A stretch of 64,000 nt of DNA from Patescibacteria group bacterium (GCA_035510735.1 DATKGN010000013.1:64596-128595); one strand, 5' to 3'. Positions 15,890 to 39,226 are shown, counted from the first letter of the stretch. Made by a program: numbers and translations. Notes: generated by a model not told the origin, from the letters alone.

Positions 15890-16950
15890 ATTATTTTATT
15901 TGTACCCGTTATATCTAATAATAATGCATCAAATGACCGGCAAAATCGGTCCTTCGTGAATGCGGTTGAACTTTTGAGAGCAGCCGCTGCCATGGCGCTT
16001 CGTAGCTCCGTATTTTTAATGAGTGTCGTGGTTTCCTGGATCAGCTCCTCCGTTGTATTCCAGAGGAATCCGCTTTTCCGATTCGCAATTATTTCCGGTT
16101 GCCCCCCTCCGTCAAAAACGACCGGTACGGCTCCTGCTGCCATGGCCTCAACTGTCGTTATTCCGAAATGCTCCATATGTTCCGGTTTTGTTTCCCCGTA
16201 GCCTGCTGCATGCCAATAGATAGAAGCGGCGGAATAGTGAGTATTAAGCGTTTCGTACGAACAATTAGGGTAAAATTCGACGGGCAAGCCTTTTGCTTTC
16301 AGTTTCAGGGAATTGAAATAGTCGGTATCACTTGATAATAATCCACCCGCAATGACAAGCTTCCACCCCTTTAAGAGCGGGCTCTTATATAGTTTACGGA
16401 ATGTCTCGATGAGCACATTCTGTTTCTTTGCTCCATAATGCCCGTTAAATCTGCCGACTGACAAAAGTATCTTCGATTTTCTGCCGGGCTTTAGTGCGCT
16501 CACATCAACAGGCGGGTAAATAACCGTTCTGGGGATGACAAGGTGAGGATCAAGGTGCTTTTTCGTAAATTCCGAATTGCATACAATCCGCTGATAACGG
16601 AATGCTTTCCAAAAAGGCATCGAAATATGAGAAAACGGCACCTGAAAATGAAGTATATTGTATTTTGCAGCAGATAATGGAATACTTCCGTCACTCAGGA
16701 AAAAAATAAGATCGTATGAGCTCGTGGTCATTAACTTCCCAATACTATTTCCCAACTGGAACACATTTGCGACAATACTCACTTTTGCTAGGTCAATACT
16801 AAATCTCTTTTGAACCTCAGCTTTCACTTTATTATCATCCCAGAACACGCTAACATTGTGTATTTGGGACCAATGTTCAGCCAGGCTAAACACATAACGC
16901 TCCCCTCCTCCAAGAGAATCTAAATATGGACTATATATACCGATTTTCAT
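15886..16950 (-). CDS. GT4 (GT-B fold) glycosyltransferase.
   Basis: The C-terminal block 'GITTVEAMAAGAVPVVFDGGGQPEII' matches the EX7E-type GT4 motif. The protein is 354 aa. Confidence 0.75.
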   Translation of the reverse strand: MKIGIYSPYLDSLGGGERYVFSLAEHWSQIHNVSVFWDDNKVKAEVQKRFSIDLAKVSIVANVFQLGNSIGKLMTTSSYDLIFFLSDGSIPLSAAKYNILHFQVPFSHISMPFWKAFRYQRIVCNSEFTKKHLDPHLVIPRTVIYPPVDVSALKPGRKSKILLSVGRFNGHYGAKKQNVLIETFRKLYKSPLLKGWKLVIAGGLLSSDTDYFNSLKLKAKGLPVEFYPNCSYETLNTHYSAASIYWHAAGYGETKPEHMEHFGITTVEAMAAGAVPVVFDGGGQPEIIANRKSGFLWNTTEELIQETTTLIKNTELRSAMAAAALKSSTAFTKDRFCRSFDALLLDITGTNKII

Positions 16951-19256: not shown

Positions 19257-20017
19257 GATGTCCTTTTCTGCAGTTCCCAAAGCTTCGCGTACGTAATAAA
19301 CATGCTGAATGCCTGATAAATGCTTTCAATTAACCCGACCGTACCCGCTTTCCAGCCCCCCTGGCGGATAAACGAATCAAAAAAAGCGGTCATCATGACG
19401 CGAAGAAGTCTCCACCAGGAAATGAGTGGATGATGACTTTTAAACCGTAACTCTGCTTCTAAAGCAGACCATTTATTAGTTTTATCGACCATTTCCTCAA
19501 GCGTTCGGTGCGTTTTGTGAATAAAGCAATTGCGAAGCGTTGAAATTGGCCCATGAACGACCGCATGCTCATGCAGAACTCCGTCCCACTGCGAGAGGGC
19601 ATCGTTTCGGATCAAGCGAACCATACCATCCCTACTGGGCCACAACAAGCCGAGGTAATAATTCTGTCGGGGAATAAAATAAGCGCGTGAAGCATGCTCA
19701 CCAGTTATTTCGCTCATAATTTCTTCGCGAAGCGGCGGCGGGACCAATTCATCGGCGTCCACGTAAAGAAGCCATATACCATGCGCTGCTTTAGCACCGT
19801 TATTCCGAAGCAGCGAAAAGTTATTACTCCGTACATTTACAACTATAGCGCCGCATTTTTTTGCGATAAGCGCTGTTTCATCCGTTGAAGCGTTATCAAT
19901 AACAATGCACTCATCTGCCCATGAAAGGCTCTGTAAACACCCCTCCAAGCGTTTTGCTTCATTTCTGGCAATAACAATCGCACTAAGAAGTATTCTTCTT
20001 TTCATACTGTTTTCCAA
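19253..20017 (-). CDS. GT2 glycosyltransferase (WaaE/KdtX-like clade).
   Basis: 'LSAIVIARNEAKRLEGCLQSLSWADECIVIDNASTDET' is the signature. It is a paralog of 20912..21823. Confidence 0.7.
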   Translation of the reverse strand: MENSMKRRILLSAIVIARNEAKRLEGCLQSLSWADECIVIDNASTDETALIAKKCGAIVVNVRSNNFSLLRNNGAKAAHGIWLLYVDADELVPPPLREEIMSEITGEHASRAYFIPRQNYYLGLLWPSRDGMVRLIRNDALSQWDGVLHEHAVVHGPISTLRNCFIHKTHRTLEEMVDKTNKWSALEAELRFKSHHPLISWWRLLRVMMTAFFDSFIRQGGWKAGTVGLIESIYQAFSMFITYAKLWELQKRTS

Positions 20018-21826: not shown

Positions 21827-23272
21827 CTACCGGGATATATGGATAATATCGAGAATCCGTTCTTTCTGCTTCACCCAAACCACACCTCCGTACAGTATAA
21901 CACCCGCTCCGGCGACGATAACTAACCGCGGTATGCTGTATGGCATGCTGCCGCGGGCCACGTAGTACAAGGCGCCCTGCAATAGACCTGCCAATACAGG
22001 CCATTTGATATATTCGACAAATGAGAAAGCTGCAAAACGCTGGGTAATCTTAACAACGATAAAAATCGTAAGAGATTGGATTAAGAGCCCGACGGCAAAC
22101 CCGTTAAATCCGATGAAGTGAATCAGTGTTATTGTCAAAATCCACGTTGCAACCGTCCAAAAAATCATAAGCATCATCGTGATTTTAATTTGCCCGACGG
22201 CATTAAGCGCATTAGTGAGAGGGGTCGAAAGCCCGGCGATTATCGCTGAGATAACGAAGATGAAAAATGAAACGAGCGCCGGCTCCCATTTCCCATATTT
22301 TGGTATAAGGAAAACCGCAGGTTGAACGAAAAATAGCAAGCCAACTGAAATGGGAATTATCGTAGTCGCGAGACCAAAAAGAGTTTTTTCAATCGCTTTT
22401 CCGAGCATTTCTTTTGAATGCTGAAGTCGGGAAAATGCTGGAAACGTGACTTGTATAACACTATCCATGATGAGCCGAAGCGGAACTTCGGCCCATTTTT
22501 TCGCCCACCCGATATATCCGACCTGGGCAAACGGCAATATTTTCCCTAAAAATACGGTCATAAGATCATCTTTAAGGAGAGCCAAAAACGAATTCATTTG
22601 GAATGGGATGCCGAACCTCAGGAGTTTTTTCGCAACCGGCTTTGATATTCCGAACTGAATCCGCCACGGTGAAATAATGTAGATAACGATTAATCCTACT
22701 ACCGCTCTCACACAAACCGCCCACGTAAAACTTGTGATACCAAAACCTTTCCAGGCCATGATGACTGCGACGAGGTAAAATCCTATTGTCTCTACAATTT
22801 GCGGAATGACGAGTTTTTTAAATTCTAGGTTGCGTTCAAGAAGAATTGACGGTATTGTTTTAAGTGAAGAGATAAAAAACGACACGACGAGTGCGCGTAA
22901 GAGCATAACACCGGCAGCATCTAGTTTATAAAAAGCTGCAACGAGCGGTGCGACCGCAAACGTAATGATGCTTATAGGGAACACAAGCAATTGCTGGATC
23001 GTGAATGTTGTCGACAGATCTTCCGGCGTGAGGGGTTCCTTTTTTTGAATGAGCGCAGCAGCGAGCCCGATATCGGCAAAATATTGCAAAAAATTAATGA
23101 TCGCGGAAACCACATAAAAAATCCCGAATATGGTGGGCGTCAGGAAAATAGTCAGAAGGAGTGTCGCGCCGAAAGCGATGAGCTGTAACAAAAATGTTTG
23201 AGAAGTCAGCGCTACGATCCCCGACAGCGATTTCTTTTTGATGAGTGCGATATCAATTTCTTCCATAATCAT
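21827..23272 (-). CDS. wzx: Wzx-type oligosaccharide/polysaccharide flippase (MOP superfamily).
   Basis: 481 aa with about 12-14 TM segments. The N-terminus reads 'LSGIVALTSQTFLLQLIAFGATLLL...IFGIFYVVSAIINFLQYFADIGLAAALIQKKE', typical of the polysaccharide biosynthesis protein family. Confidence 0.65.
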   Translation of the reverse strand: MIMEEIDIALIKKKSLSGIVALTSQTFLLQLIAFGATLLLTIFLTPTIFGIFYVVSAIINFLQYFADIGLAAALIQKKEPLTPEDLSTTFTIQQLLVFPISIITFAVAPLVAAFYKLDAAGVMLLRALVVSFFISSLKTIPSILLERNLEFKKLVIPQIVETIGFYLVAVIMAWKGFGITSFTWAVCVRAVVGLIVIYIISPWRIQFGISKPVAKKLLRFGIPFQMNSFLALLKDDLMTVFLGKILPFAQVGYIGWAKKWAEVPLRLIMDSVIQVTFPAFSRLQHSKEMLGKAIEKTLFGLATTIIPISVGLLFFVQPAVFLIPKYGKWEPALVSFFIFVISAIIAGLSTPLTNALNAVGQIKITMMLMIFWTVATWILTITLIHFIGFNGFAVGLLIQSLTIFIVVKITQRFAAFSFVEYIKWPVLAGLLQGALYYVARGSMPYSIPRLVIVAGAGVILYGGVVWVKQKERILDIIHISR

Positions 23273-24002
23273 ATATCATTCTCTTCCATGGTCTGATAAC
23301 CAATAATCGCCATAAACCCTCCAAATCCCCCTGAGCCGTTTTTACAACCCGCACGGTTGAACCCGGGTTGTCGATCCACGTCACTCCCTCTTCATAAATG
23401 CGAAATCCCAGCTTTTCAGAAAGAATCAATAATTCAGTATCAAAAAACCATGCATTATCCTCGGTATACGGTAAAATCTTTTTTGCACAACGGTCAGTAA
23501 TCGCCTTAAAACCGCACTGGGCATCGCTAAATTTGACCCAAAAAAACAGTTTAATAAGAGAAATATACACTTTTGAGGTCAGTGTCCGTAGCCAATTTCT
23601 ACCGTACACGCGGGAGGCTCTCGCGTTCCTTGTCCCGATAGCAAGATCATATCCACGAAGCAGTGAACGAACAAGAGGCGGAAAGTGCTTGAGATCTGTT
23701 GAGAGATCAACATCCATATAACAATGGATATCGGCATCGGTGTGAAGCCAGGCGTATTTTACTGCACGTCCCCTGCCTTTTTGTTTCAGATGGACTGCGT
23801 GCACTTGCCGGAATCGTTTTGATAGTATTTTAGCAATAGCAAGCGTTTGATCCGTCGACGCGTTATCTGCGATGGTAATACTCCATTCAAAATCCATTAA
23901 ATATGATTGCAGATAGCGGATAAGCGTCTCCACGTGATCCGCTAATTCAACTTCTTCATTAAAAACAGGTATGACGATATCAAGTTTTGGTTTTTTTCCC
24001 AT
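23253..24002 (-). CDS. GT2 polyprenol-phosphate sugar synthase-like (Dpm1/GtrB-like), short form.
   Basis: 'LDIVIPVFNEEVEL...ITIADNASTDQTLAIAK...QKGRGRAVKYAW' is the signature. It is 249 aa with no C-terminal TM. Confidence 0.6.
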   Translation of the reverse strand: MGKKPKLDIVIPVFNEEVELADHVETLIRYLQSYLMDFEWSITIADNASTDQTLAIAKILSKRFRQVHAVHLKQKGRGRAVKYAWLHTDADIHCYMDVDLSTDLKHFPPLVRSLLRGYDLAIGTRNARASRVYGRNWLRTLTSKVYISLIKLFFWVKFSDAQCGFKAITDRCAKKILPYTEDNAWFFDTELLILSEKLGFRIYEEGVTWIDNPGSTVRVVKTAQGDLEGLWRLLVIRPWKRMIYDYGRN

Positions 24003-25656
24003 ATGTGAGAACTCCTCCGACTAAAACGAATGAAATAACACTCAACACATTTCCGACAATGCGGATGGGAGTATTGGTAAGACTCGCTTCAAATGTCGAT
24101 TTACCCTTCGATAGTACCATGCGGGGCTCGCCCTGAACAATGGTAGGACGAACGAGGAGACCGTTTATTTTATAAATCCATCCGGGGAATACGGCCTTCT
24201 GAAAAACTGTCTGTTGGTCAATGTTACTTTCAAGAATAGCTTTATAGTTGGTATCGGAATCGGTAATTTCGGTAACTCTAAGATTTTCATTGCCTATAAT
24301 TGGCGCTGTTATAATCTCTGATGCACTTATCGGTTTTTTAATTCCCGGCGGCAAATATTCATCAGATATCTTGGAAATTCGAAAACGAAGTTCGTCCGTT
24401 GTCTCAAACGCTTTTGAATCCTGCGCATACAGGTATTGCGGCGCGAATAATTTTGCATTCATAAATAGACAAATACCGACCACCACGATCGCAAGTAATA
24501 TCTGATGCGTACGTTGCTGTATCGTTGAAATGAAAAAACTTGCTGATATGCCCATGGCGAGCATTACAAAGGCTAATAGACGCCACGGGTATTGAATAAA
24601 CGACACAAAAGGCACTATCAACCATAATGATTTCGAAACATCAATCATTCCTACAACAGATAATACGAAAAGAATTACTCCAATCGTTGCCATCGCCGTA
24701 ATGGTCGACTTCTTTTTATTCTTTAGTGAAACTACCCACATCAAAGCGGCTATCATCGTCACTATTAACTGGAGTTTACCGAGCTTAAATGACATGCCGT
24801 CGACGCACCCGGGCGCTGAACCCGCATAACCCCACGGGGAATCCCATAACTGCAACGGACATACAAAATGATCGAAAAAATTCGTTGGCGCGCGCGAAAT
24901 CATAGATGACACGGATGTCGATCCCATTTCAACAAAAGCGGGAAGCCAAAAAAATGCGCTAAGCCCGAAGCCTAGTAAAACCGACATGAATAAATGCATC
25001 ATTAACTGCGCATCAAAAGACTTTCGGATGAATGCGTAGAGTGAATATAAAAGAATGCCTCCGATAACTAATCCTGAAGTTAAAAATCCCAAAATTGTGT
25101 GTGAGACAATGACACACGCAAACCCGATGCCACCTACAACAATCCCTATAGATGTTTTTTTCTTTACGATAAGGGAAAATCCCCAGAGTATGAGTGGAGC
25201 AAATGCTATTGCCCAATATTCCCCAACAGCCCCTCTGATATACACCTGAACGGCATGATAGGGTGCGTAAGAGAAAAGCAACGTGCCGACGATAGCGCTG
25301 ATTGTACCGAAAATATAATCAGCAAAAAAATAAAAAAATACAACGGCGAGGAGGATGCCTGCGGCAAACATAGTTTTTGTCGCTACAATGCTGTCTACCC
25401 CAAACGCATGGAGTGTACCTCCGAAATAGTAAGGGAGCGGGGCATAAAAGTTGTATAAGGGATATCCGTAACCGTATCCGAGGTCTGAAACCCATCGCAC
25501 AGGAAATTGTCCCTCACGAAGCGCCCTTCCCATTACAACAACGCGCGCAACCTGTGTATCATCATGCATGGGAAAATATCCTGGTCCGACCAGTGGTTTA
25601 ATGAGAAACCAAGACAAAAGCAACACAACGATGAATCCTATCAATGTAAATTTCAT
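23980..25656 (-). CDS. Polytopic membrane protein, GT-C-like, with a conserved 'FPMHDDTQVARV...LREGQFPVRWVSDLGYGYGYP' N-terminal loop. Possibly PF10131 PTPS-related-type; family assignment is low confidence. Paralog 1.
   Basis: 558 aa and multi-TM. The N-terminal loop motif is shared with the adjacent paralog. Confidence 0.55.
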   Translation of the reverse strand: MKFTLIGFIVVLLLSWFLIKPLVGPGYFPMHDDTQVARVVVMGRALREGQFPVRWVSDLGYGYGYPLYNFYAPLPYYFGGTLHAFGVDSIVATKTMFAAGILLAVVFFYFFADYIFGTISAIVGTLLFSYAPYHAVQVYIRGAVGEYWAIAFAPLILWGFSLIVKKKTSIGIVVGGIGFACVIVSHTILGFLTSGLVIGGILLYSLYAFIRKSFDAQLMMHLFMSVLLGFGLSAFFWLPAFVEMGSTSVSSMISRAPTNFFDHFVCPLQLWDSPWGYAGSAPGCVDGMSFKLGKLQLIVTMIAALMWVVSLKNKKKSTITAMATIGVILFVLSVVGMIDVSKSLWLIVPFVSFIQYPWRLLAFVMLAMGISASFFISTIQQRTHQILLAIVVVGICLFMNAKLFAPQYLYAQDSKAFETTDELRFRISKISDEYLPPGIKKPISASEIITAPIIGNENLRVTEITDSDTNYKAILESNIDQQTVFQKAVFPGWIYKINGLLVRPTIVQGEPRMVLSKGKSTFEASLTNTPIRIVGNVLSVISFVLVGGVLTYGKKTKT

Positions 25657-27224
25657 GAACTCTTTTTTGTCTTCTTAACGGTCTTTTGAGCAATCTTTTT
25701 CTTACGTTTCAAATATAAAATCGACACAATAACAAAAATGATACTGATAACAAGCGAACACATATCTGCAATAAATCTCGATATTGTTTCCCGAAAACTT
25801 GCGATAACATGATGAACGCCTGCCGGAATAGTTACACGGATAAGGCCTAAGTCATTTTTATAATCAATTGTTGCTAATTCTCCGTCAACACTGACTCCCC
25901 ACCCGGGGTAATACATCGTGTTTATCTGAAGAATGCTCTCATCCTTCGCATCAACGACAACATCGATATTTTCCGTCGTCACCTGGTTCTCCCGAATGTT
26001 GCCTGACCCCTTCAATATCTCTAATCTGGTTTCTGCGCGATTTATCGGCGATACGGTTACCCATTTGGGCATATACTCGTCGTGAACGGTCGTTGTGGCT
26101 TCATTCGTCGAATAATACGTATCGGGATGATATTCGTAGCTAATTCCCCTGTAGATACTGTTCAGATGCAGTGTCCATAGAAGAATAAGGGCAATACTGG
26201 CAGGAAGTAAAAATTTTTTCAAAGAATCAAGATACAATGCAGTTAACCACGCCATTGTGAACAGAGAAAGTGACAATAACCTGAACGGAAATTGAAATAA
26301 TACACCAAGAAGCTTAGTATGCCACAGAAATGAGGTCAACGAGGTGGCCATAACCATAGAGAAAATACCTATCAACAGCATATACGTAAGCAATTGATGT
26401 TTCGTACGGCGGATCAACAAAATGGCGGAAACAATAATACCGCTTATTCCGAGAAGCCAAATATTGGTATTTTTAATAAAGTAATCAAACGGATTTGATA
26501 TAATCGACCGTTCAAATACAATATATTTTTGTTCGTACAATGCGGGCATCCAGAAAAAAGAAGCCATTCCGATACCGAACACCAACCAAATGAAGTACTC
26601 TCGCGCCACTTTACGGACCAACAAATACCCGCAGTAAAACCCTATACACAGGACTGCAAGCGAATTATGGGCAAGAATAAGAAGCCCGACAGAAAGAGAA
26701 AACAGCCAAGGCTGACCCAATTCAATGCTATATAGCCCCATCCCAGCCACACTGAAGGCAAGTAATTCTCCGACAGATCCCCGAGAGTAAAGGTCAAATA
26801 ACAAATACGGCCCTGTCATGAAAGAAAGGGCTCCGAAAAGACTCGACGTCGTTTTAAAAAACTTCCGTAACCACAGGTAGATCCAAATGCCGCCGGATAC
26901 TAGAGACACGCCAAGGATTATTTTCACCGTCGTTACGAACGAAAAGCCGGCAATATGTATGAGGGAACCAATATAAAGAAATCCGGGGTATAGAAAATTA
27001 GCGACGGGATATCCGTAACTATGATTCAGTCTTCCTAAAAAACGAACGGGAAACTGCCCCTCACGGAAGCTTTGATAGAACGCGCTTAACCTAATGATCA
27101 TCCAACTGCCGTCATCGGTCACTATGAATCCGCGATGAAATAACGGCAGAAGAAGCATGAGCCCTACAAATATGATCACAACAAATGGAAAGAGCTTTTT
27201 GAAAGTAAGGCTCATAAATAACAA
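25653..27224 (-). CDS. Polytopic membrane protein, the same family as 23980..25656. Paralog 2, a tandem duplicate.
   Basis: The N-terminal loop reads 'FIVTDDGSWMIIRLSAFYQSFREGQFPVRFLGRLNHSYGYP'. A 4-nt overlap links it to paralog 1. Confidence 0.55.
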   Translation of the reverse strand: MLFMSLTFKKLFPFVVIIFVGLMLLLPLFHRGFIVTDDGSWMIIRLSAFYQSFREGQFPVRFLGRLNHSYGYPVANFLYPGFLYIGSLIHIAGFSFVTTVKIILGVSLVSGGIWIYLWLRKFFKTTSSLFGALSFMTGPYLLFDLYSRGSVGELLAFSVAGMGLYSIELGQPWLFSLSVGLLILAHNSLAVLCIGFYCGYLLVRKVAREYFIWLVFGIGMASFFWMPALYEQKYIVFERSIISNPFDYFIKNTNIWLLGISGIIVSAILLIRRTKHQLLTYMLLIGIFSMVMATSLTSFLWHTKLLGVLFQFPFRLLSLSLFTMAWLTALYLDSLKKFLLPASIALILLWTLHLNSIYRGISYEYHPDTYYSTNEATTTVHDEYMPKWVTVSPINRAETRLEILKGSGNIRENQVTTENIDVVVDAKDESILQINTMYYPGWGVSVDGELATIDYKNDLGLIRVTIPAGVHHVIASFRETISRFIADMCSLVISIIFVIVSILYLKRKKKIAQKTVKKTKKSS

Positions 27225-27233
27225 TGAATCGGT

Positions 27234-28751
27234 CTATTTTTTAATGAGTGCAGGATTTATTTGATATAATCTCATTTTTGTCGCAGAATTCGTACCTTTT
27301 TGATAAGCGGAAATAAACGAAATCGGCCAGTCCGGTATTATCTGCAGTTGATTAAATACCATATATGTCGGGTGGATTGCTGCATCTTTTACCATCGCGT
27401 CAGGGATAATCTGAGGAATCGGCCAGATGCTCTTAATGGTCACATTATGGTTGTCAAGCTGGTACATCTCAAATGCATACGGAAGAAGGCCGAATGTGCC
27501 ATCGGTATAGATGGTTATTTTAGAGTTTTTGGAATGTTCGGTGATAAATGCATTAACTTCCCGCACTCCCCAACCGGCCGGCCAATCGTTGAGAAGCTGA
27601 CCGCTATCAGCCTTGGGGATGGGAGCTTTCAACGGATTAGTTAGAATATAATAATCGGTCCAAATACTCGCACCAAATACAACGACGCATAAAAGTAGCA
27701 TAATTATCTTTTGCGGTATCTTTTTCCCCAATTCAATTAAACCGATTGACACTAATACGAGAAGTGGCATTGCCATAAACAAAATAAATCTTGGATAAAG
27801 AACCCGGCCAAATAACGCTAAAGCCACGATCGGAGCGTAACACCAACCATATAGTAAAATTTTTTCTTTCGTTAATTTCCGGAAAAAAACAATCGGAAGA
27901 AAAGATGTGATAAAAACCGGAATAGTTAAATAATGAATGAGCCAGTCCAAAAGCCCATGCATGTTACCTTGAAGAAAGTTAAACGGATGAGACAGCCACT
28001 CCTTAAATGAATAGACAAATACCGCATCCTTTGCAGTAACCATATTAAAGAGCGGCGACAGCCTCAAAACGCTGTACATTACCTCAGACAGGAATGCTGA
28101 AAGCAGAACCAAGCCTATCCATTGCAGTAATCGCGACATTATTTTTTTCTTTTTCCAGTCAAAAAGAAGGAGCGTCCCGGGAAGCATATATAAGCTCAAA
28201 AAACCGGATGATTTGTTGAGCATCCCCATGCCGAGTGTCATACCCAAAATAAGGGCGACATCAAGCCGCACATAGCGGACGAGGAGGATAGCCATATACA
28301 GATTCCAGATGGAGAACGCCGCAACAAGCGAATCATAGAGCGCTAACCGGTCATACATGAGCGTAAACGGACACACGAGATAGATGAAGCTGGTCAAAAA
28401 ACTCACCCGTTTACTATGAGTGACCTCAAAGCTCAGGAACCAAATTCCTACCATGCTCAATAATCCGGCGCCTACAGAAACCAGCCTGCCTGCTGTTAAC
28501 GGATCCTTAATAAACCGTAAAACAACCATCATAATCCATGTAAACATCGGCTGTTTGCCGTCAACGAGTGAGATGAACCGCCAACTGGCGTCCCTACTCC
28601 CGATCTGCGACCAGCGGATATAAATAGCCTCATCGGTAAATATAGGCAAAAGGGTTAAATGATAAAGGCGCGTCACAAAATACGCACCTAATAGTAGAAG
28701 CACGAACAGGCCGCCAAGTGTCCAGGTTCTTTTCCTCATCCCCATATTCAA
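27234..28751 (-). CDS. ArnT/PMT-like (GT39/GT83-type) membrane glycosyltransferase, paralog 3.
   Basis: 'RLYHLTLLPIFTDEAIYIRWSQIG' is a DE-motif first periplasmic loop. The protein is 505 aa and polytopic. Confidence 0.55.
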   Translation of the reverse strand: MNMGMRKRTWTLGGLFVLLLLGAYFVTRLYHLTLLPIFTDEAIYIRWSQIGSRDASWRFISLVDGKQPMFTWIMMVVLRFIKDPLTAGRLVSVGAGLLSMVGIWFLSFEVTHSKRVSFLTSFIYLVCPFTLMYDRLALYDSLVAAFSIWNLYMAILLVRYVRLDVALILGMTLGMGMLNKSSGFLSLYMLPGTLLLFDWKKKKIMSRLLQWIGLVLLSAFLSEVMYSVLRLSPLFNMVTAKDAVFVYSFKEWLSHPFNFLQGNMHGLLDWLIHYLTIPVFITSFLPIVFFRKLTKEKILLYGWCYAPIVALALFGRVLYPRFILFMAMPLLVLVSIGLIELGKKIPQKIIMLLLCVVVFGASIWTDYYILTNPLKAPIPKADSGQLLNDWPAGWGVREVNAFITEHSKNSKITIYTDGTFGLLPYAFEMYQLDNHNVTIKSIWPIPQIIPDAMVKDAAIHPTYMVFNQLQIIPDWPISFISAYQKGTNSATKMRLYQINPALIKK

Positions 28752-28790
28752 ATTATACCTGAAATGGAGAATTCAGATCAAATTAGCAGC

Positions 28791-29948
28791 CTAAAATAGA
28801 GGTTTATGACGAATCATCCGCTGGGTAGCATACAGAATCATAGACAATCCGATAGGTATAAGAGTCACCCACAACTCAATAGTCGGTACCGGTTTATTCC
28901 AGTCCCCGTAATAAAAATAGGGCGCATAGCGAAGAAGAAGTCCTAAGGAAACCCCGAAGGCCACAATGATACTTACTTCGTTATCAGGTAGAAGCGCAAT
29001 AAACGGCATAATCCATATAAAATACCATGCAAGTACTTCGCGCTGAAATAAGACGAGAATTAGTCCGACACACATCGCGATAAGCGCGAATATCCGCCGG
29101 TAGCCAAAAACGATGACAGGATAAAGAAACAGGGTCATTAACTTTGCCCCGACGGAAAGAGCCAGGAATAAATATGCCAGTATTCGTTTTTTTGTGATGT
29201 AAAAAAACAGTGACATCATTGCAAACGCCATCATCTCAATATCGTTATGTGCGCTTACCAATGTCTCAAAAATAACGAGCGGATTAAGGGCAAAAATCGC
29301 AACCCCGAGATCTCTTTTGTCCACATCAAGGATATCTAATATTTTTGCAATAAACCAGATGGTGAGAAGATAAAACCCGAGGGCAAGAAGCTTGAAATTC
29401 TCAAGAATAAGGAGAAAGTAACCAAATCCGAGTATATACGCCGGAAGACTGATAAAAATCCAGAGCGGTGTGTAGGCGCTTGGAAGATGTGTCCAGCGCA
29501 TAAATGAAAGCCATGGTTCAACTCCGGTAAACTGCAGAGGGATAACCATATACGGATTCTTGTGATAGACAAGCACTGTTTTTGCCGTAAACATGTAATT
29601 ATATATGTCATATGAAAAGGCAGGATATGAAAAAATGGTCAAAACAGAAAGAACGATGATGATCGTCCATAACTGTTTCGTTGAAATCAATTTACGTTTT
29701 ACTGCAATAAGCGCAATCGCATAAAGTGCGAAATAAACGATCAGTAACCCGATAAACCAACTTGTCGCGACCGGACGCTGGTAAAATCCGATATGTTGAA
29801 ATATTTTTTCGATCATCTGGAAGATACTAACCTGGCTTAGGGTTAAACTTAAATCAACCTGGGTATAAGAAAATAAAAACAAGCCGATACTTACAAGTGA
29901 GTAGGTGCCTAACAAAAATGGAAATAGTGATGCGCGTCTTCTTGTCAT
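28791..29948 (-). CDS. Polytopic membrane protein, GT-C-like (DUF2029/GT87-like, tentative). Paralog of the edge gene 1..988.
   Basis: 385 aa with about 10 TM segments. It shares the motifs 'VLVYHKNPY', 'HLPSAYTPLW', 'ALNPLVIFETLVSAHND' with 1..988. Confidence 0.5.
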   Translation of the reverse strand: MTRRRASLFPFLLGTYSLVSIGLFLFSYTQVDLSLTLSQVSIFQMIEKIFQHIGFYQRPVATSWFIGLLIVYFALYAIALIAVKRKLISTKQLWTIIIVLSVLTIFSYPAFSYDIYNYMFTAKTVLVYHKNPYMVIPLQFTGVEPWLSFMRWTHLPSAYTPLWIFISLPAYILGFGYFLLILENFKLLALGFYLLTIWFIAKILDILDVDKRDLGVAIFALNPLVIFETLVSAHNDIEMMAFAMMSLFFYITKKRILAYLFLALSVGAKLMTLFLYPVIVFGYRRIFALIAMCVGLILVLFQREVLAWYFIWIMPFIALLPDNEVSIIVAFGVSLGLLLRYAPYFYYGDWNKPVPTIELWVTLIPIGLSMILYATQRMIRHKPLF

Positions 29949-29951
29949 GAC

Positions 29952-30695
29952 TTATGTATAATACCCTTTCCATGCGTTGTAACGGATCCGCAAAATATCA
30001 ACGAGTCCCTGAATAGAGTCAGTAATGGGATTGACACGCCTTGTCTCCACATAGTGCCATTCGACCGGAACCTCTTTGATTTTATATCCCCGTTTTTTTG
30101 CAAGAAAAATTACCTCAATATCAAAGCCCGCGGTCACCATGGAACCAGCGACTTTATGTTTTTCACCATATAGCCGCAAACTATGAAATATATCTTTTGC
30201 AACCTCACGTTTAAACGCCTTAAACCCGCACTGTGTATCAATAATACCCTTAAGTCCTAAAATCGAACCCCGCAGCATCATAAAACCGCGGGCCATCAAA
30301 AGCCGGAAGAATGGTGCTCCCTCACGTTTTGAACTCCTTGAACCGATAACGACATCAAAGTCTTGTTCAAAATACGGCAGTATCCTCTCAACCTCACAAA
30401 TCGGCGTTGCCTGGTCAAGATCGGTAAACAGCACGATATCGCCTTTAGCTGTCAACATACCAGTCATTACTGTACTTGCCTTACCCATATGCGGATTATG
30501 GATAACACGAAAATTCTTATTCGTATGAGTAAAATCATCAAGAAGTTTTGACGATCCGTCAATCGACCCGTCATCAACAAGAATTACTTCCCACGAATAC
30601 GGCTGATGCTCGAGATATAACGACACTTTATCGAGCGACCCCAACCGGATATTTTTTTCTTCGTTATATGCCGGAATAACAACGGATAATTGCAT
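29952..30695 (-). CDS. GT2 polyprenol-phosphate sugar synthase (Dpm1/GtrB-like).
   Basis: 'LSVVIPAYNEEKNI...VILVDDGSIDGSSKLL...GKASTVMTGMLTAKGDIVLFTDLD' is the signature. Confidence 0.65.
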   Translation of the reverse strand: MQLSVVIPAYNEEKNIRLGSLDKVSLYLEHQPYSWEVILVDDGSIDGSSKLLDDFTHTNKNFRVIHNPHMGKASTVMTGMLTAKGDIVLFTDLDQATPICEVERILPYFEQDFDVVIGSRSSKREGAPFFRLLMARGFMMLRGSILGLKGIIDTQCGFKAFKREVAKDIFHSLRLYGEKHKVAGSMVTAGFDIEVIFLAKKRGYKIKEVPVEWHYVETRRVNPITDSIQGLVDILRIRYNAWKGYYT

Positions 30696-30703
30696 ACTAT
30701 TCT

Positions 30704-32311
30704 CTACGTTCCTTTGTAATGAACTAGTTTATAAATTTTTACGAACGGCACGTCCCAAGAACCCACAATATCTGCCCTGCCAAATCCGGCAACTTCCCAC
30801 AGAGAGTTCCCGAGCGGTTTACAGTTCATGGTTTCACAAATCACTATCAACTGATTGGTGACCGTCTTTCGGTCCGGATCAGCACCCGCGGGCTCTATAG
30901 TAACCGGTGCTCTTCCCCAAATTTCAAAGAAGTACCGGTACGCATGATCAGAATTTCCTTCGGTGATGAGTGCAAAATTAAACGGCTTACCGTCTGTTCT
31001 TTCAAGCGCTACGCGTGCGATTGTCTGAATCTGCGATAATTGGTTGTTCGGGGGAAAAACGAAAGGGCGTCCCTGCCAATTAAAGAACAGGAGCGCCCCC
31101 CATAGAATAACGGTCATTACTTTGCCGACGGAACCGATCCAAAGTCTTGACAATGTAAACCCCAAAAAAAGAAAAGGCAGCCAGAATACGATCCCGAAGT
31201 AATAATCGTAAATCGCTTTCCGATAGAGTCCGAAAAGTAGAATGACGGTAAAAAACCAAACTAAGAGAAGAAATATCGCCTCAATAGAATAACCGGAATG
31301 ACCCGTCACCCGATCAATAGTTGAAACCCAACTCTTCGCTATTTTGGTCCTGACTTTTTTAAAAGATAATCCCGTAATAAGAATAAAAAGGAGAACGGGG
31401 ACATATATCGTCGCTTTTGTCAGTATAACGAGAACAAGAACATACCAATGCGGATAATTGTTCCACAGCGGCTCCTCAGGAATTCGATAGAGTAACCGGG
31501 CAAAAATTCGGAAAATAACGTCGCTGATCGTAGGGAAATATTGGGCCCAAGAAAATCCGGTGTCTTTACCCGCAAGTAAAAACTGAATAATAGATTTCGT
31601 ATTCGGAAATCCGTGCCGTACCTCAAAAGCTAAAAAGGGCAAAAAACCTATGATGAATCCGACGATTGTTTTAATAACGGTCCGGAAAAAATGAATTCGC
31701 CGAATCTGCAGGAGATACCAAACACCAACAACAACGAACAGAAACAAAAACAGGTAATGCAACTGGATCCCGATCCCTAGGGCGATACCGATAATGATCG
31801 CATCATATTTACCTGGTTTAACCACGAGCTTCCACAGGTAGTAAAGTAAACATAGTGAAAAAAACGGAACAATATTCGGATTCCAGGATGATCGGGAGTA
31901 CGCAATAACGAGCGGGGATGCAGCATAGATACTCGCGGCAATGAGGCCTGCTAATTTGTTAAAAAAATCGGTGCCGGTTTTATACACGAGGTAAATCGTC
32001 GCAATACCGAATAATGCAACCATGACAGCGGGTCCTACCGGGTCAAGTTTAAAGGCCCAAAGAAAAGGCAGCATAAAATAGTAATAAATGGGCCCGAGGA
32101 AAAATCCTCCGACGGAAGCCGTTGGGCCCAAAAGAGTGAATTTATGATTCACAATCATGTGCATGACGATAAGAACATCCCTGCCTTCATCTCCTAAAAA
32201 GGTCATGTAATTCCTAATCATATAGAGCCGTAAATACGCCCCGAGAAGAAGAATGAAGATAAGTACGATCTGTGACCAATATTTTAATATGAAGGGTTTT
32301 ACTGGTTTCAT
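30704..32311 (-). CDS. Polytopic membrane protein with the 'MTFLGDEGRDV' loop. Paralog of 1028..2506 and a likely GT-C glycosyltransferase.
   Basis: The start was trimmed to the internal ATG (MKPVKPFILKYW...) at 32309-32311. The track ORF to 32449 would overlap the upstream gene by 118 nt. Confidence 0.55.
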   Translation of the reverse strand: MKPVKPFILKYWSQIVLIFILLLGAYLRLYMIRNYMTFLGDEGRDVLIVMHMIVNHKFTLLGPTASVGGFFLGPIYYYFMLPFLWAFKLDPVGPAVMVALFGIATIYLVYKTGTDFFNKLAGLIAASIYAASPLVIAYSRSSWNPNIVPFFSLCLLYYLWKLVVKPGKYDAIIIGIALGIGIQLHYLFLFLFVVVGVWYLLQIRRIHFFRTVIKTIVGFIIGFLPFLAFEVRHGFPNTKSIIQFLLAGKDTGFSWAQYFPTISDVIFRIFARLLYRIPEEPLWNNYPHWYVLVLVILTKATIYVPVLLFILITGLSFKKVRTKIAKSWVSTIDRVTGHSGYSIEAIFLLLVWFFTVILLFGLYRKAIYDYYFGIVFWLPFLFLGFTLSRLWIGSVGKVMTVILWGALLFFNWQGRPFVFPPNNQLSQIQTIARVALERTDGKPFNFALITEGNSDHAYRYFFEIWGRAPVTIEPAGADPDRKTVTNQLIVICETMNCKPLGNSLWEVAGFGRADIVGSWDVPFVKIYKLVHYKGT

Positions 32312-32330
32312 AGTACAAGGTGACTTCAAC

Positions 32331-33449
32331 TTATTTTTTCCAAATGACTTTTGAATACATGAAATAATTCCAAACAAGGAGAAGCGCCGTTCCACCAAGG
32401 AAGTAAATAAAATAGTGCCGATCACCATATAATCGGACGCCAAGTTCAATTATTCCAGTTTGAATAACAATAACGCCGAATGCGGATGTGGCGTAAAACT
32501 GCAGGAGTTTCAGAAGGTACTGGCGGAAACCGGAAATTTTTTTGTGACCGAATGTCCATAAATTATTTAAATTATAGTTTGAAAAAATCGCAACACCGGC
32601 TCCGATAAGGTTAGCAACTGATGCTGTGAAATGAACCCAATTATGAAAAATCATCAGGAGCACAGCGTTAATTGCGAACCCAATTCCTCCGACAATAAGA
32701 AACTTAGAAAAAGATCCGGAAAATAATTCCTGCATTCGGGATTCAAAAATATACAGAAAAATATTTTTGATATATTCTGCCGGAGCGATTTTTGAGTGAC
32801 CGTAAAGTCGGTCGGTAAAATGAAAAGGAACTTCTAAAATCTTGGCACCGTGATGGATTGCCTTATGTAAAAACGCTATTTGAAAAACGTAACCGCTGTA
32901 TTTCGACAGCTCGGAATGTATCTCGACATAAAACTTTTTCGTATACGCGCGAAATCCACCGGTCCAATCATTAACGTGAATATGGCCTAAGCCGAACCGC
33001 ACAATTGAGTTTCCTAAGACGCTGTATATTTTTCGATGCATTCCCCAGTTTTCCGGAATCGAGCCGCCTTTAATGTATCTGCTTCCGACAACAAAATCAT
33101 ATCCGCGATCAAGAGCACGCAAAAATTCTGGTGCAACCTTGGGGTCATGCGACAAATCCGCATCTATCTGTAACACCGCATCAGCATCCATGTGGTCAAA
33201 GGCATAGGTCATGCCGCGGAGTATAGCTTTCCCTAATCCTTCTTTTTTACCCGTTATTATTTCAACGTTTTTATGCGTTTTTTTATATGCAACAACAGCA
33301 TCCCGCGTTCCGTCCGGAGACGTATCATCAACAACAAGATAAGATATGGCATGGTTTTTCACCACGCTAAATGCTTGGGTTAGTTGGCTAAGGAGCGAAG
33401 CGATATTTTCTCGCTCGTTATACGTGGGAACGACAACGACAACCTTCAT
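32331..33449 (-). CDS. Fusion protein: an N-terminal GT2 polyprenol-phosphate glycosyltransferase (Dpm1/GtrB-like) joined to a C-terminal GtrA-family flippase-like 4-TM domain.
   Basis: The N-terminal part reads 'MKVVVVVPTYNERENI...YLVVDDTSPDGT...GKKEGLGKAILRG...QIDADLSHDP'. The C-terminal part reads 'FLIVGGIGFAINAVLLMIF...ANLIGAGVAIFSNYNLNNLWTF', the GtrA/PF04138 pattern. The start was set at the ATG 33447-33449; the track uses TTG at 33476. Confidence 0.65.
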   Translation of the reverse strand: MKVVVVVPTYNERENIASLLSQLTQAFSVVKNHAISYLVVDDTSPDGTRDAVVAYKKTHKNVEIITGKKEGLGKAILRGMTYAFDHMDADAVLQIDADLSHDPKVAPEFLRALDRGYDFVVGSRYIKGGSIPENWGMHRKIYSVLGNSIVRFGLGHIHVNDWTGGFRAYTKKFYVEIHSELSKYSGYVFQIAFLHKAIHHGAKILEVPFHFTDRLYGHSKIAPAEYIKNIFLYIFESRMQELFSGSFSKFLIVGGIGFAINAVLLMIFHNWVHFTASVANLIGAGVAIFSNYNLNNLWTFGHKKISGFRQYLLKLLQFYATSAFGVIVIQTGIIELGVRLYGDRHYFIYFLGGTALLLVWNYFMYSKVIWKK

Positions 33450-33457
33450 AAATAATA

Positions 33458-34417
33458 CTAAACCCGTTCTCGCCAATAGTTCAGGAGGTCTTCCATCGTC
33501 TTTTTAAACGGTATCTCAGGTTTCCAACCGGTCTTCGCAATAAACTTTTTATTATCTCCCTGTAACACCGGCACATCGGAGGGACGCATGCGTGCCGGAT
33601 CTGGCTTAATTTCAACTTTTGTCTTTGACATGGAAAGGAGCATTTGGAGCATATCTCCGATCCTAATTGTTGAACCGGTACAGATATTATACACATCTCC
33701 GGGATCGCACTTTTCAACAGCTAAAAGATACGCGCGCACCATATCCCGCACATCTGTATAATCCCGACTGGCATCCAGATTACCGACATGAATAATGGGA
33801 TCTTGTTTCCCTTTTTCAATAAGTGCTATCTGTTTGGCAAAATTCGACTCAGCAAACGTATCACCGCGTCGTGGTCCGGTATGGTTAAATCCGCGGGTTC
33901 GCACTACTCGCACTTTATATGACTGATAATATTGATAGCCCAGATAATCCATGGCGAGCTTAGAAACCGCATACGGACTAAGCGGTCGTAATGGGTTTGT
34001 TTCTTTAATCGGTATTTCGTTTTCGTGAACCAATCCGTATTCCTCTGAAGAACAGGCAATCTGAATGACAGGATCAATCCCTGCCATACGTACCGCTTCA
34101 AAAAGATTCGCAGAACCTACAATATTAACCTCCAAGGTCACCGAAGGAGATACCCACGACGTCGGAACGAACGATTGTGCTGCCAGATGAAATATATACA
34201 TCGGTTTTATCCGCGATATCGTTGCGTAAAGACTATGTGTGTCGAGCAAATCCGCATCCTCAAGATGCAGTTTATTGATAATCGACTCGATATGGTCAGT
34301 TTTACTTCTCGCACGGAGTAATCCATATACCTCATAGCCCTGCGACAACAGTAGTTCTGCCAAGTGGCTTCCTACAAATCCCGCAATACCGGTAATAAAC
34401 GCTTTTTTAGCTGCCAT
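33458..34417 (-). CDS. GDP-mannose 4,6-dehydratase family SDR (Gmd/Rmd-like). It is short-form and possibly a GDP-4-keto-6-deoxymannose reductase.
   Basis: 'FITGIAGFVGSHLAELLLSQGYEV', 'SPYAVSKL', 'FNHTGPRRGDTF' and 'GNLDASRDYTDVRD' align with the Gmd/Rmd family. The protein is 319 aa. Confidence 0.6.
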   Translation of the reverse strand: MAAKKAFITGIAGFVGSHLAELLLSQGYEVYGLLRARSKTDHIESIINKLHLEDADLLDTHSLYATISRIKPMYIFHLAAQSFVPTSWVSPSVTLEVNIVGSANLFEAVRMAGIDPVIQIACSSEEYGLVHENEIPIKETNPLRPLSPYAVSKLAMDYLGYQYYQSYKVRVVRTRGFNHTGPRRGDTFAESNFAKQIALIEKGKQDPIIHVGNLDASRDYTDVRDMVRAYLLAVEKCDPGDVYNICTGSTIRIGDMLQMLLSMSKTKVEIKPDPARMRPSDVPVLQGDNKKFIAKTGWKPEIPFKKTMEDLLNYWRERV

Positions 34418-34477: not shown

Positions 34478-35776
34478 TCACATTCTCCCTACACCATAAT
34501 ACATGAATCCAAGCTGCTTTACACGTGTAGGCTCATAGATATTGCGCCCGTCAAACAACACCAGAGATTTAAGACCCTTTGCGAGTTTGACGAGATCTAA
34601 CTGCTGAAACTCATTCCATTCCGTCAATACAACAACACCGTCAGCCCCATTTGCGGCCTCGTATGGATTTTTTGCGAACGAAACATCTTTAGGCAATAGT
34701 GGTTTTGCGTTATCCATAGCAACGGGATCGTAGGCGATAATTTTTGCCCCCTGTTTGACTAGTTCATTGATGATCGTAATTGAAGGGGCCTCCCGCATAT
34801 CATCGGTATTTGGCTTAAATGAAAGCCCGAGAACCGTGAGTGTTTTTTTGTGAAGGTTATTATTATAATGACGAAGAATTTTATCGACAAAATGCTTCCC
34901 TGCCTGTTTATTCACCTCATCCACAGCTTTAAGTAATGCAAAATTATAGCCATGCTCTTCCGATATCGCGATAAGCGCCTTCACATCTTTAGGGAAACAG
35001 CTGCCGCCGTAGCCGACACCCGGATAAAGAAATCCGCGTCCGATCCGCCGATCAAGGCCGACACCCTCCAATACCTGCTCAACGTCCGCGCCCACTTTTT
35101 CTGAAAGAAATGCTACCGCATTTGCAAATGATATTTTTGTCGAAAGCAAAGAATTGCTCGCATACTTGATAAGCTCGGCGGTTTCTACATTGCATAAAAC
35201 TTTTTTACCATCGATAGATTTATGAAGCTCCAATAATAGCTCTCGTGCCCGATCAGACGTAGTGCCAATAATTACCCGATCAGGATGAAGCGTATCCTCA
35301 ATGGCAGTCCCTTCTCGTAAAAATTCAGGAACCGAAGCGATAGCGAATGTTGCACCTTCAGGCTTATATTTCGTTATGACCTGTGAAACTTTTTGATTCG
35401 TACCGGGAGGAACAGTACTTTTTGTGACGACAACTTTATAACCAACCAACGCTTTTCCTATACTTTCTGCAGCGGCAAAAACGCTGGTTAAATCTGCTTC
35501 CCCTGTTGCCTTTGGCGGCGTGCCGACGCAGATAAAAATAATCGAGGACGGGGCCACCGCCTGTTTATAATCAAGTGTAAAAACGAGCCGCCCTGCATCA
35601 ACATTCCGTTTGACTAACTCTGATAACCCGGGTTCATAGAATGGAGCAATACCTCTTTTTAGCTTTTCGATTTTCTCCTTCGTCCTGCCGACCACCCAAA
35701 CAGTATTGCCCAAATCAGCAAAAACGGTAGCTGTCACTAACCCTACGTAGCCATGTCCTACAAATGTTACTGTCAT
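34478..35776 (-). CDS. ugd: UDP-glucose 6-dehydrogenase family (nucleotide-sugar dehydrogenase).
   Basis: 'VTFVGHGYVGLVTATVFADLG', 'ICVGTPP' and 'GGSCFPKD' are the family signatures. The start was set at the internal ATG (MTVTFVG) at 35774-35776. Confidence 0.8.
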   Translation of the reverse strand: MTVTFVGHGYVGLVTATVFADLGNTVWVVGRTKEKIEKLKRGIAPFYEPGLSELVKRNVDAGRLVFTLDYKQAVAPSSIIFICVGTPPKATGEADLTSVFAAAESIGKALVGYKVVVTKSTVPPGTNQKVSQVITKYKPEGATFAIASVPEFLREGTAIEDTLHPDRVIIGTTSDRARELLLELHKSIDGKKVLCNVETAELIKYASNSLLSTKISFANAVAFLSEKVGADVEQVLEGVGLDRRIGRGFLYPGVGYGGSCFPKDVKALIAISEEHGYNFALLKAVDEVNKQAGKHFVDKILRHYNNNLHKKTLTVLGLSFKPNTDDMREAPSITIINELVKQGAKIIAYDPVAMDNAKPLLPKDVSFAKNPYEAANGADGVVVLTEWNEFQQLDLVKLAKGLKSLVLFDGRNIYEPTRVKQLGFMYYGVGRM

Positions 35777-35781
35777 ATCGT

Positions 35782-35812
35782 GAAGAAAAATGTGGACGCT
35801 ACTCGCGCGTCC
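35782..35812 (-). terminator. Intrinsic-terminator-like hairpin between rmlD and ugd on the minus strand. The stem is GGACGC/GCGTCC and it is followed by a U-rich tract.
   Basis: The plus-strand sequence is tggacgctactcgcgcgtcc, with gaagaaaaatg just 5-prime of it. As minus-strand RNA this reads GGACGCGCGAGUAGCGUCC-ACAUUUUUCUUC. Confidence 0.3.
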
Positions 35813-35842
35813 CACCCACCTATATTACCATATTTTGTGCTG

Positions 35843-38974: not shown

Positions 38975-39226
38975 TTAATGCTTGAGTACTGTCGCCAGTA
39001 AAACAATTGCAATAGCTCCTATGAGCACATATTCTACCACAATCTTCTGATGTAAGTCGCGGTTCATTGCATGATGGATAAATCCCCAAAGAACGTAAGC
39101 CACCGAAGTTACAACACCGATGATAAACTGGGTGTCAGTGTTAGGCGCAGCATAATAAAACGCGCCTATACCGCCGGCTAATATTAATAATAGAACGATG
39201 TAATGAATAATGTGGGCGTTTTTCAT
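38975..39226 (-). CDS. Small 3-TM membrane protein (83 aa), hypothetical.
   Basis: Three clear hydrophobic helices are present. It is tightly packed between the CAP-domain gene and rmlA. Confidence 0.4.
   Translation of the reverse strand: MKNAHIIHYIVLLLILAGGIGAFYYAAPNTDTQFIIGVVTSVAYVLWGFIHHAMNRDLHQKIVVEYVLIGAIAIVLLATVLKH

Follow-up and report, generated by a model that had tools for sequence, protein, structure and literature searches.

A conserved glycosylation operon of a Patescibacteria group bacterium encodes three putative polyprenyl-phosphate-sugar synthases, one of which is joined to a GtrA/DPMS-type transmembrane domain

PfDPMS, the type-III dolichyl-phosphate mannose synthase (DPMS) of the hyperthermophilic archaeon Pyrococcus furiosus, was solved in 2017 and its transmembrane (TM) domain was explicitly described as GtrA-like (PMC5526996); the available structures (5MLZ, 5MM0, 5MM1, and 9EP0) combine a family 2 glycosyltransferase (GT2) domain, two interface helices, and a four-TM GtrA-like domain in one chain, and in a paper of 2026 a second role was proposed for the enzyme, that of translocating the lipid-linked sugar it makes (PMC12992685). 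In the three-component systems, namely GtrA/GtrB/Gtr*, CsbB-GtcA-YfhO, ArnC-ArnE/F-ArnT, and the pentofuranose systems (PMC11127046), a GT2 acts inside, translocation follows, and a glycosyltransferase of the C fold (GT-C) acts outside. In the actinobacterial pathway (Ppm1/Ppm2, Pmt, MptA/MptB, and PimE together with PpgS/Rv3632/Rv3779), TM-less synthases work with separate membrane partners, and PMT-type and MptA/B-type GT-Cs consume the donor. Here we analyzed 64 kb of DNA from a Patescibacteria group bacterium (GCA_035510735.1, DATKGN010000013.1:64596-128595; hereafter the window, in which all coordinates are counted), where three GT2 genes and a series of genes for GT-C-like membrane proteins lie together on the minus strand. 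This region is probably the core of a vertically inherited envelope glycosylation operon of Gottesmanbacteria-like Patescibacteria, in which three polyprenyl-phosphate-sugar synthases would feed five GT-Cs.

In the order of transcription, the three proteins are encoded at 32331..33449 (synthase 1, 372 aa), 29952..30695 (synthase 2, 247 aa), and 23253..24002 (synthase 3, 249 aa). The open reading frames (ORFs) lie exactly where a sequence-only reading of the window had placed three Dpm1/GtrB-like synthases, and the public gene calls reproduce products of 249, 247, and 372 aa. The window proteins correspond to the public records HUD20194.1 to HUD20201.1 (metagenome-assembled Patescibacteria group bacterium, 299-kb contig), and the start codons adopted in this study (33449, 32311, 28745, and 27215) are those called for the identical public proteins. 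All three synthases contain PF00535 (E 1.9e-26 for synthase 2), and their best PDB and NCBIfam matches were DPMS, ArnC, GtrB, PgfS, AglJ, and PpgS. As a control, four other GT2s of the window were compared, and these retrieved MftF, EpsD, and rhamnosyltransferase models first, with ArnC reaching only 3e-5 to 1e-4. Furthermore, the three synthases were one another's best matches within the window (E 1e-18 to 7e-14, 26–29% identity), whereas their matches to its other GT2s were 1e-5 or weaker. Membership in processive, non-polyprenol clades, which the sequence-only reading had named as grounds for abandoning its proposal, was thus not observed, and on these comparisons all three proteins are assigned to the polyprenyl-phosphate-sugar synthase clade (Dpm1/Alg5/GtrB/ArnC/PpgS).

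Synthase 1 was found to be a GT2 resembling type-III DPMS that carries four TM segments, as had been predicted for this gene. PF04138, which Pfam labels ‘GtrA/DPMS, transmembrane domain’, matched residues 258-379 of the long form of the ORF with an E value of 2.2e-15 and 57 bits against a cutoff of 26.1, and four hydrophobic peaks were located at 250-268, 272-290, 320-338, and 346-364. A C-terminus without PF04138 or membrane character, the other ground on which the sequence-only reading would have given way, was accordingly not observed. A phmmer search aligned the protein end to end with PfDPMS (query 9-379, 5MLZ chain 22-372 of 374, E 7.7e-39). Its AlphaFold2 (AF2) model (pLDDT 89) likewise gave 5MLZ as the top Foldseek match (E 2.8e-23, TM-score 0.66/0.69, 383 columns), with ArnC and GtrB ranking behind it. 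In the motif comparison, for which PfDPMS positions are used, synthase 1 shares with the archaeal enzyme E12, D39, D89/D91, H94, the S116-R117-Y118 triad, R131, S135, R202, and K208, as well as N248 and N277; the roles of E12, D39 (the guanine contact), D89/D91, R117, R131, S135, R202, and K208 in PfDPMS have been reported (PMC5526996), and residues 248, 277, and 341 have been described as a polar pocket of the TM domain (PMC12992685). Judged by sequence and predicted fold, synthase 1 is a bacterial counterpart of archaeal type-III DPMS, with catalytic domain, interface helices, and four-TM GtrA-like domain in one chain.

In its catalytic domain, synthase 1 shares about 40% identity with the product of an actinobacterial plasmid gene annotated as ‘polyprenol monophosphomannose synthase’ (H30); another plasmid match (H29) resembles it but has no annotation. 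Directly upstream of synthase 1 lies a short-chain dehydrogenase/reductase (SDR) gene of the GDP-sugar family (Rmd/GMD-like; 33458..34417, minus strand; PF16363, 281 bits), whose best PDB match was the GDP-6-deoxy-D-lyxo-4-hexulose reductase 2PK3 (E 1.6e-82); GDP-heptose and GDP-mannose dehydratases ranked next. Because D39 is kept, because the catalytic domain resembles an annotated polyprenol monophosphomannose synthase, and because a GDP-sugar SDR precedes the gene, the donor of synthase 1 is predicted to be a GDP-hexose, most likely GDP-mannose, and its product would be polyprenyl-P-mannose. We also considered an Arn/Rgt-like pathway, in which the Ugd-family dehydrogenase encoded next to the SDR and the SDR itself would furnish UDP-GalA, UDP-Xyl, or Ara4N for a polyprenyl-P-uronate or -pentose used by an ArnT-like GT-C; this was rejected because the SDR is nearest to GDP-sugar reductases and dehydratases, not to UDP-GlcA decarboxylases or epimerases.

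Type-III DPMS has been defined by motifs and is said to occur solely in archaea, all of them hyperthermophiles (PMC12992685), and we tested synthase 1 against this strict definition (Gandini et al. 2026, PMC12992685). For this purpose, two samples were compared: the 120 best matches to synthase 1 in a collection of 5.8 billion proteins, and, as a wider sample, the 80 full-length fused proteins found among the best 150 of the 638 representatives at the 50%-identity level that reach E<=1e-30 against synthase 1. The architecture was that of the definition, namely a GT2 joined covalently to a four-TM GtrA-like domain with full-length homology to PfDPMS. The motif 89-DADxQHPP-96 (x = L, F, or Y) was not found, synthase 1 reading DADLSHDP; the S at position 93 never varies among the 120 closest relatives, 117 of which have D or N at position 95. 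Presumably, DADLSH represents the eukaryotic DPM1 version of this motif. As for the ligands of the dolichyl phosphate (Dol-P) phosphate group, SRY, R131, and S135 are kept while K178 is replaced by V (VFQ for KIL), and the gating position 338, F or Y by definition, is L in synthase 1 and M or V in its relatives. Meanwhile, D89, D91, H94, P96, S116-R117-Y118, R131, S135, N248, N277, and N341 were essentially invariant across synthase 1 and the 120 relatives, N341 being the non-Thermococcales variant of R341. In the wider sample, R117, R131, and R202 were invariant and K208 was present in 79 of 80; the pocket residues were largely maintained (N277 in 68, N341 in 73, and N248 in 51, with N, Q, or D at position 248 in 74). 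Synthase 1 thus lies outside the strict type-III class, yet it appears to match PfDPMS in architecture, in the ligands for donor and acceptor, and in the polar pocket. It further differs from PfDPMS in its origin, being bacterial and known from metagenomes; in its acceptor, which is presumably a bacterial polyprenyl phosphate and not dolichyl phosphate; and in its location in an operon with GT-C genes.

The fusion is by no means peculiar to this locus. PF00535 and PF04138 were found together in all 120 of the best relatives (366–393 aa), many of the named ones carrying the JGI name ‘dolichol-phosphate mannosyltransferase’, and the 80 full-length fused representatives are 31–55% identical to synthase 1. 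In addition, relatives covering at least 80% of synthase 1 are encoded in 29 plasmid records, mainly of Rhizobium but also of Sphingomonas and Martelella. The claim of the sequence-only reading that such a synthase-flippase fusion had not been described in this form was therefore not upheld, given that the PfDPMS architecture dates from 2017 (PMC5526996), that its role in translocation was proposed in 2026 (PMC12992685), that the best relatives are fused without exception, and that a Rhizobium plasmid fusion gene overlaps a GT39 gene. Literature searches for this operon, or for bacterial GT2-GtrA fusions in the candidate phyla radiation (CPR)/Patescibacteria, returned no description among the papers covered and one passing mention, of a Saccharibacteria genome in which dolichol-phosphate mannosyltransferase occurs in three copies alongside a GT87 enzyme (PMC6031116).

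Some relatives extend the fusion further. Single chains of GT2, PF04138, and PMT_2 were identified in P0383 (1041 aa) and P0265 (851 aa), the former being called as one uninterrupted ORF on a contig of 8.8 kb (locus L014, 1019-4144); P0382 joins a GT2 to PMT_2 without PF04138, and P0342 combines a GT2 and a GtrA/DPMS TM domain with DUF6798. On plasmid p1 of Rhizobium rosettiformans, a 360-aa protein of GT2 and PF04138 (WP_203020266.1, paired with WP_203020268.1; 99% query cover) is encoded with a 4-nt overlap beside a PMT_2/GT39 gene. This protein is 28% identical to synthase 1, has Q93 and K178 as in PfDPMS, and carries H248 and K341 in the pocket. It forms a single pair in an O-antigen-ligase/glycosyltransferase cluster, in contrast to the multi-synthase operon of the window. 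The pair occupies L013 5986-8555 (NZ_CP032406.1 360686-363255), among genes of GT25, GT1, and the O-antigen-ligase family; R. rosettiformans is a cultured alphaproteobacterium and hence a tractable model for the synthase-flippase idea. Since triple-domain fusions exist and the Rhizobium genes overlap, a functional pairing of the synthase 1 type with PMT_2 transferases is supported. In the window, a PMT_2 GT-C (30704..32311, minus strand; 535 aa, ArnT/PMT-like; PF13231, E 2.9e-10) follows synthase 1 and is the likely user of its product.

To locate further translocation domains, the entire 64 kb was examined. No stand-alone GtrA was detected by a hydrophobicity screen of small ORFs (70–220 aa with at least three segments), in which the sole ORF retrieved was an 83-aa one with a DUF5656 match (38975-39226), and phmmer searches with the window and PfDPMS TM domains (PF04138 region) against six-frame translations detected no second GtrA-type segment. 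The window thus holds a single GtrA-type domain and no small four-TM GtrA-like ORF, and the description of the region as a GtrA/GtrB/GT-C module reiterated three times had to be dropped. The last gene of the block, by contrast, encodes a flippase of another kind, a 481-aa member of the MOP/Wzx family (21827..23272, minus strand; PF13440, E 2.5e-52; PF01943; NCBIfam MOP flippase models), which on our analysis would be as good a candidate exporter as the fused TM domain. The idea of the sequence-only reading that a single fused flippase would supply several transferases found no support.

Several observations bear on whether the TM domain of synthase 1 moves its product. That the GtrA/DPMS domain is a genuine cis-acting translocator, and synthase 1 the entry point of a multi-donor, mycobacteria-style assembly line with at least five GT-Cs, we consider rather unlikely. 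Somewhat more plausible, if still tentative, is the view that this domain would merely be an anchor and a polyprenyl platform, and that Wzx/MOP or an unlinked scramblase would flip all three lipid-linked sugars. In PfDPMS, catalysis was unaffected in TM-domain mutants and translocation was discussed only as a possibility (PMC12992685), and the product complex of 2017 shows the isoprenoid chain lying against TMH4 (PMC5526996). The conservation of a MOP-family flippase at the end of the block also fits this view, and so do the MATE-family flippases that act in known three-component systems (PMC11127046). A simple anchor, however, would hardly explain why N248, N277, and N341 never vary among the 120 closest relatives and are largely kept in the 80 wider ones.

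Turning to synthases 2 and 3, synthase 2 gave PgfS (2e-20) and ArnC (8e-20) as its top NCBIfam matches, near full-length matches to PpgS and haloarchaeal Dol-P-hexose transferase models, and DPMS, ArnC, and GtrB as its top PDB matches. The family profile of synthase 3 matched PfDPMS (1.2e-21) ahead of GtrB (3e-11), ArnC (6e-11), and other GT2s (1e-7 or weaker), and aligned with the synthase 1 family at an hhalign probability of 98.9%, while the names given to its members are merely generic (‘glycosyltransferase involved in cell wall biosynthesis’). Both proteins keep D89, D91 (DxD), R117, and R131; S135 is replaced by A in synthase 2, which also keeps the G-F pair at PfDPMS 158-159. No TM segment was found in either, and in the alignment each protein stops at the very point at which PfDPMS enters its TM domain, so that both differ from GtrB and ArnC in lacking the C-terminal TM helices. 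Their genes adjoin or overlap those of membrane proteins, which for attachment is suggestive only. A helical hydrophobic-moment analysis aimed at interface helices did not distinguish the TM-less synthases from the other GT2s, and its result was not used. Synthases 2 and 3 are thus predicted to be catalytic-domain-only synthases for two other lipid-linked sugars.

Alternatively, synthases 2 and 3 might be cytoplasmic GT2s of the ordinary kind, adding sugars to a lipid-linked oligosaccharide that Wzx exports. Such a role would accord with the absence of a TM segment, with the lack of R202 and K208 in the A-loop, with the Wzx gene overlapping that of synthase 3, and with the three further GT2s and a GT1 downstream. 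We nevertheless regard it as improbable: the searches rank DPMS, GtrB, and ArnC ahead of other GT2s by 4–10 orders of magnitude, the models of two TM-less enzymes, PpgS and Dol-P-hexose transferase, match over nearly the full length, R117 and R131 are kept as ligands of the Dol-P phosphate, and both genes stand among GT-C genes, which need such donors. TM-less members of the clade are, moreover, well known, human DPM1 and M. smegmatis Ppm1 being examples.

The block as a whole was conserved to a degree that bears on its origin. Eleven genes, from the Ugd-family dehydrogenase to Wzx, are colinear in five other loci (L007, L008, L010, L011, and L012), in all of which the Ugd-family start of the block and the position of Wzx after synthase 3 are kept, and L009, a 44%-identical relative, keeps the first eight. 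Orthologs of synthase 1 are 92% identical in L007 and 62–73% identical in L008 and L010–L012; the relatives carrying the colinear block lie on contigs of about 0.4–1 Mb, and the nearest named relatives of the locus belong to Candidatus Gottesmanbacteria and to the Microgenomates group. L010–L012, the three of these loci with called genes, also retain rmlACBD, the DUF5656 gene, and a CAP-domain gene upstream of the block. As the 11-gene order recurs in five loci and in part in L009, the clustering is not due to chance. Each synthase is 62–94% identical to its own positional ortholog but only 26–29% identical to its paralogs, and recent duplication of modules was rejected on this comparison.

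The same data bear on the analogy with phage-encoded Gtr serotype-conversion cassettes drawn in the sequence-only reading, and on the possibility that the modules are phage-derived or otherwise horizontal cassettes, or recent tandem duplications. The concept of a GT2 synthase, a GtrA-type domain, and a GT-C is indeed common to Gtr cassettes, and a GT-C does stand next to a synthase; a separate gene for a ~120-aa, four-TM GtrA and any prophage or accessory status were not found. Instead, the GC content is flat over the region, the flanks are housekeeping genes (TsaE, Sua5, FtsX, PrfB, RuvB, SecA, and SerRS), no phage genes occur in the region or its flanks, and the 11-gene colinearity extends down to 62% identity. 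Such an origin is hardly credible, synteny and divergence together refuting it. Given this synteny, the divergence of orthologs and paralogs, the flat GC content, and the housekeeping flanks, the locus is an old, vertically inherited chromosomal operon, conserved in its lineage, rather than a phage cassette or a recent reiteration. Two of the compared assemblies bear unexpected titles: L007 (CAYLQG010000002.1), ‘uncultured Gammaproteobacteria bacterium’, in which the operon is 76–96% identical gene by gene, and L009 (CAZIBP010000005.1), ‘uncultured Pseudomonadales bacterium’, which carries a Patescibacteria-type operon; these assemblies are probably mis-binned or mislabelled.

All genes from about 10.7 to 48.8 kb of the window are on the minus strand, and within the operon intergenic gaps are at most 45 nt, the genes otherwise overlapping. 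RmlA, RmlC, RmlB, and RmlD are transcribed in this order (39.1-35.8 kb), followed by the first gene of the block, a UDP-glucose/GDP-mannose dehydrogenase family member (Ugd; 34478..35815; PF03721, PF00984, and PF03720), and the SDR. From synthase 1 onward, the order is synthase-GTC-synthase-GTC-GTC-GTC-GTC-synthase-Wzx, such that one, four, and no GT-Cs follow synthases 1, 2, and 3, respectively; the earlier description of each synthase as immediately upstream of one or two GT-Cs was inaccurate in this respect, as 23253-24002 is followed by Wzx. At either end the gene for synthase 3 runs into its neighbour, sharing 23 nt with the GT-C gene before it and 20 nt with the Wzx gene. For the 535-aa PMT_2 protein, the mechanical ORF runs to a TTG at 32449 and would overlap synthase 1 by 119 nt, and the public start, ATG 32311, leaves a gap of 19 nt. 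Beyond Wzx, three further GT2s, a YfhO, a GT1, a second YfhO, and more genes follow; the four glycosyltransferases of this set are cytoplasmic. A sigma-70 promoter scan of 21-40.5 kb found promoter-like sites at or below chance, an intrinsic-terminator scan of the same interval found sites slightly above chance, all of them inside coding sequence, and both were uninformative; tRNA and Rfam scans of the window gave no match.

Four further GT-C-type membrane proteins are encoded on the minus strand between synthases 2 and 3. The first (28791..29948; 385 aa, about 10 TM segments) is MptA_B/GT87-like (PF09594, E 4.2e-5; TIGR03459 (MptA), E 6.6e-8), and PF26314 MptA_B_family is recorded for an identical protein. 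The second is a PMT_2 protein (27234..28745; PF13231, E 7.9e-11), for which, as for 30704-32311, the public gene call gives the same length (503 and 535 aa, respectively). The third (25653..27215; 520 aa) has no Pfam match; its AF2 model (pLDDT 92.2, pTM 0.92) retrieved exclusively GT-Cs as top Foldseek matches (STT3, PglB, AftD, ALG12, and ArnT; probability 1.0, TM-score 0.38–0.49), and the D34-D35 pair that follows TM1 was the same in all of 55 sequences, so that, as modelled, this protein has the fold of a GT-C and bears acidic residues in its first loop on the extracytoplasmic side. It is paralogous (24% identity, E 1e-36) to the fourth, a 558-aa PTPS_related protein of the GT-C clan (23980..25656), which matched PF10131 at E 1.8e-4, under the cutoff, while its L011 ortholog carries this match without a below-cutoff mark.

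As a working model, the synthase/flippase/GT-C logic of the sequence-only reading remains reasonable, although its analogy to phage Gtr serotype cassettes does not, the locus being a conserved chromosomal operon flanked by rml and housekeeping genes. Each synthase would load polyprenyl phosphate with a single sugar taken from a nucleotide sugar, the lipid-linked sugars would cross the membrane, and the five GT-Cs would use them outside on proteins or glycopolymers. From gene order alone we would assign partners, acceptors, and flipping as follows: synthase 1 would hand polyprenyl-P-mannose to the adjacent PMT_2 protein, and its own TM domain may flip the product, whereas synthases 2 and 3 would, like Dpm1, Ppm1, and PpgS, need partner proteins that attach them to the membrane and flip their products. 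For synthase 3, the overlapping Wzx/MOP gene would be the obvious candidate; this overlap recalls three-component systems that use flippases of the MATE family, the fold family of Wzx/MOP (PMC11127046). The locus shares with the three-component systems the GT-C families PMT_2, YfhO, and GT87-like, but it has no stand-alone GtrA, and its three synthases and at least five GT-Cs contrast with a 1:1:1 cassette; likewise, it departs from the actinobacterial pathway in that the membrane partner of synthase 1 is the fused GtrA/DPMS domain and not Ppm2, and in belonging to an unrelated lineage. No evidence for lipomannan-type acceptors was found.

Several points weigh against this model. Synthase 1 departs from the strict type-III definition at four positions (Q93S, P95D, K178V, and F338L). 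Neither synthase 2 nor synthase 3 has R202 or K208, and position 39 is N in synthase 3, so the two may use other donors or depart from the usual chemistry. Flippase activity of the GtrA family has never been shown directly (PMC11127046), and flipping by PfDPMS is a proposal from the crystal state only (PMC12992685). Finally, neither an initiating phosphoglycosyltransferase of the WecA/WbaP type nor a recognizable Wzy was found in the 64 kb.

The operon forms part of a glycosylation island of about 39 kb (1028-39089) with 12–13 GT-C-like proteins, seven GT2s, one GT1, one Wzx, and rmlABCD. Besides those described above, PMT/PMT_2 GT-C-like proteins are encoded at 2507-4183, 9078-10724 (plus strand), and 1028-2506, the product of the last being 26% identical to the 535-aa PMT_2 protein, and four YfhO paralogs at 4287-6695 (plus strand), 6692-9016, 13631-15889, and 16947-19280. 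The count of 12–13 includes a 653-aa protein (10725-12686) with about 13 predicted TM segments and no Pfam match, which lies between PMT_2 and GT2 genes and could be another GT-C or a polymerase. The 83-aa ORF mentioned above has three TM segments and a weak DUF5656 match, and lies between the CAP-domain gene and RmlA, a slot likewise occupied in L002, L010, L011, and L012. Outside the island, a 538-aa ORF (62309-63925) matches the class I lysyl-tRNA synthetase catalytic model at positions 224-357 of 360 only, followed by a B3_4 domain; the N-terminal part is absent from the ORF, perhaps owing to a frameshift, a split gene, or the nearby end of the window.

Taken on its own, the finding is real but ordinary, in that the fusion architecture is known, structurally solved, and widely annotated, and the operon is standard in the public genomes of this lineage. 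Its wider meaning concerns the family: a very large bacterial family with the PfDPMS architecture and polar pocket tempers the claim that such enzymes are confined to hyperthermophilic archaea, and it offers non-thermophilic and even cultured (Rhizobium) homologs with which the question of flipping can be approached. The triple-domain proteins provide gene-fusion evidence that pairs this type of synthase with PMT_2 transferases, and, if the TM domain is indeed a translocator, natural synthase-TM-GT-C fusions would imply physical channelling from donor synthesis through flipping to transfer. For the organism, whose genome is probably small, given that the block sits on contigs of about 1 Mb in its closest relatives, the island would represent a large share of the genome, which suggests a heavy investment of these uncultured bacteria in extracytoplasmic, lipid-donor-dependent envelope glycosylation.

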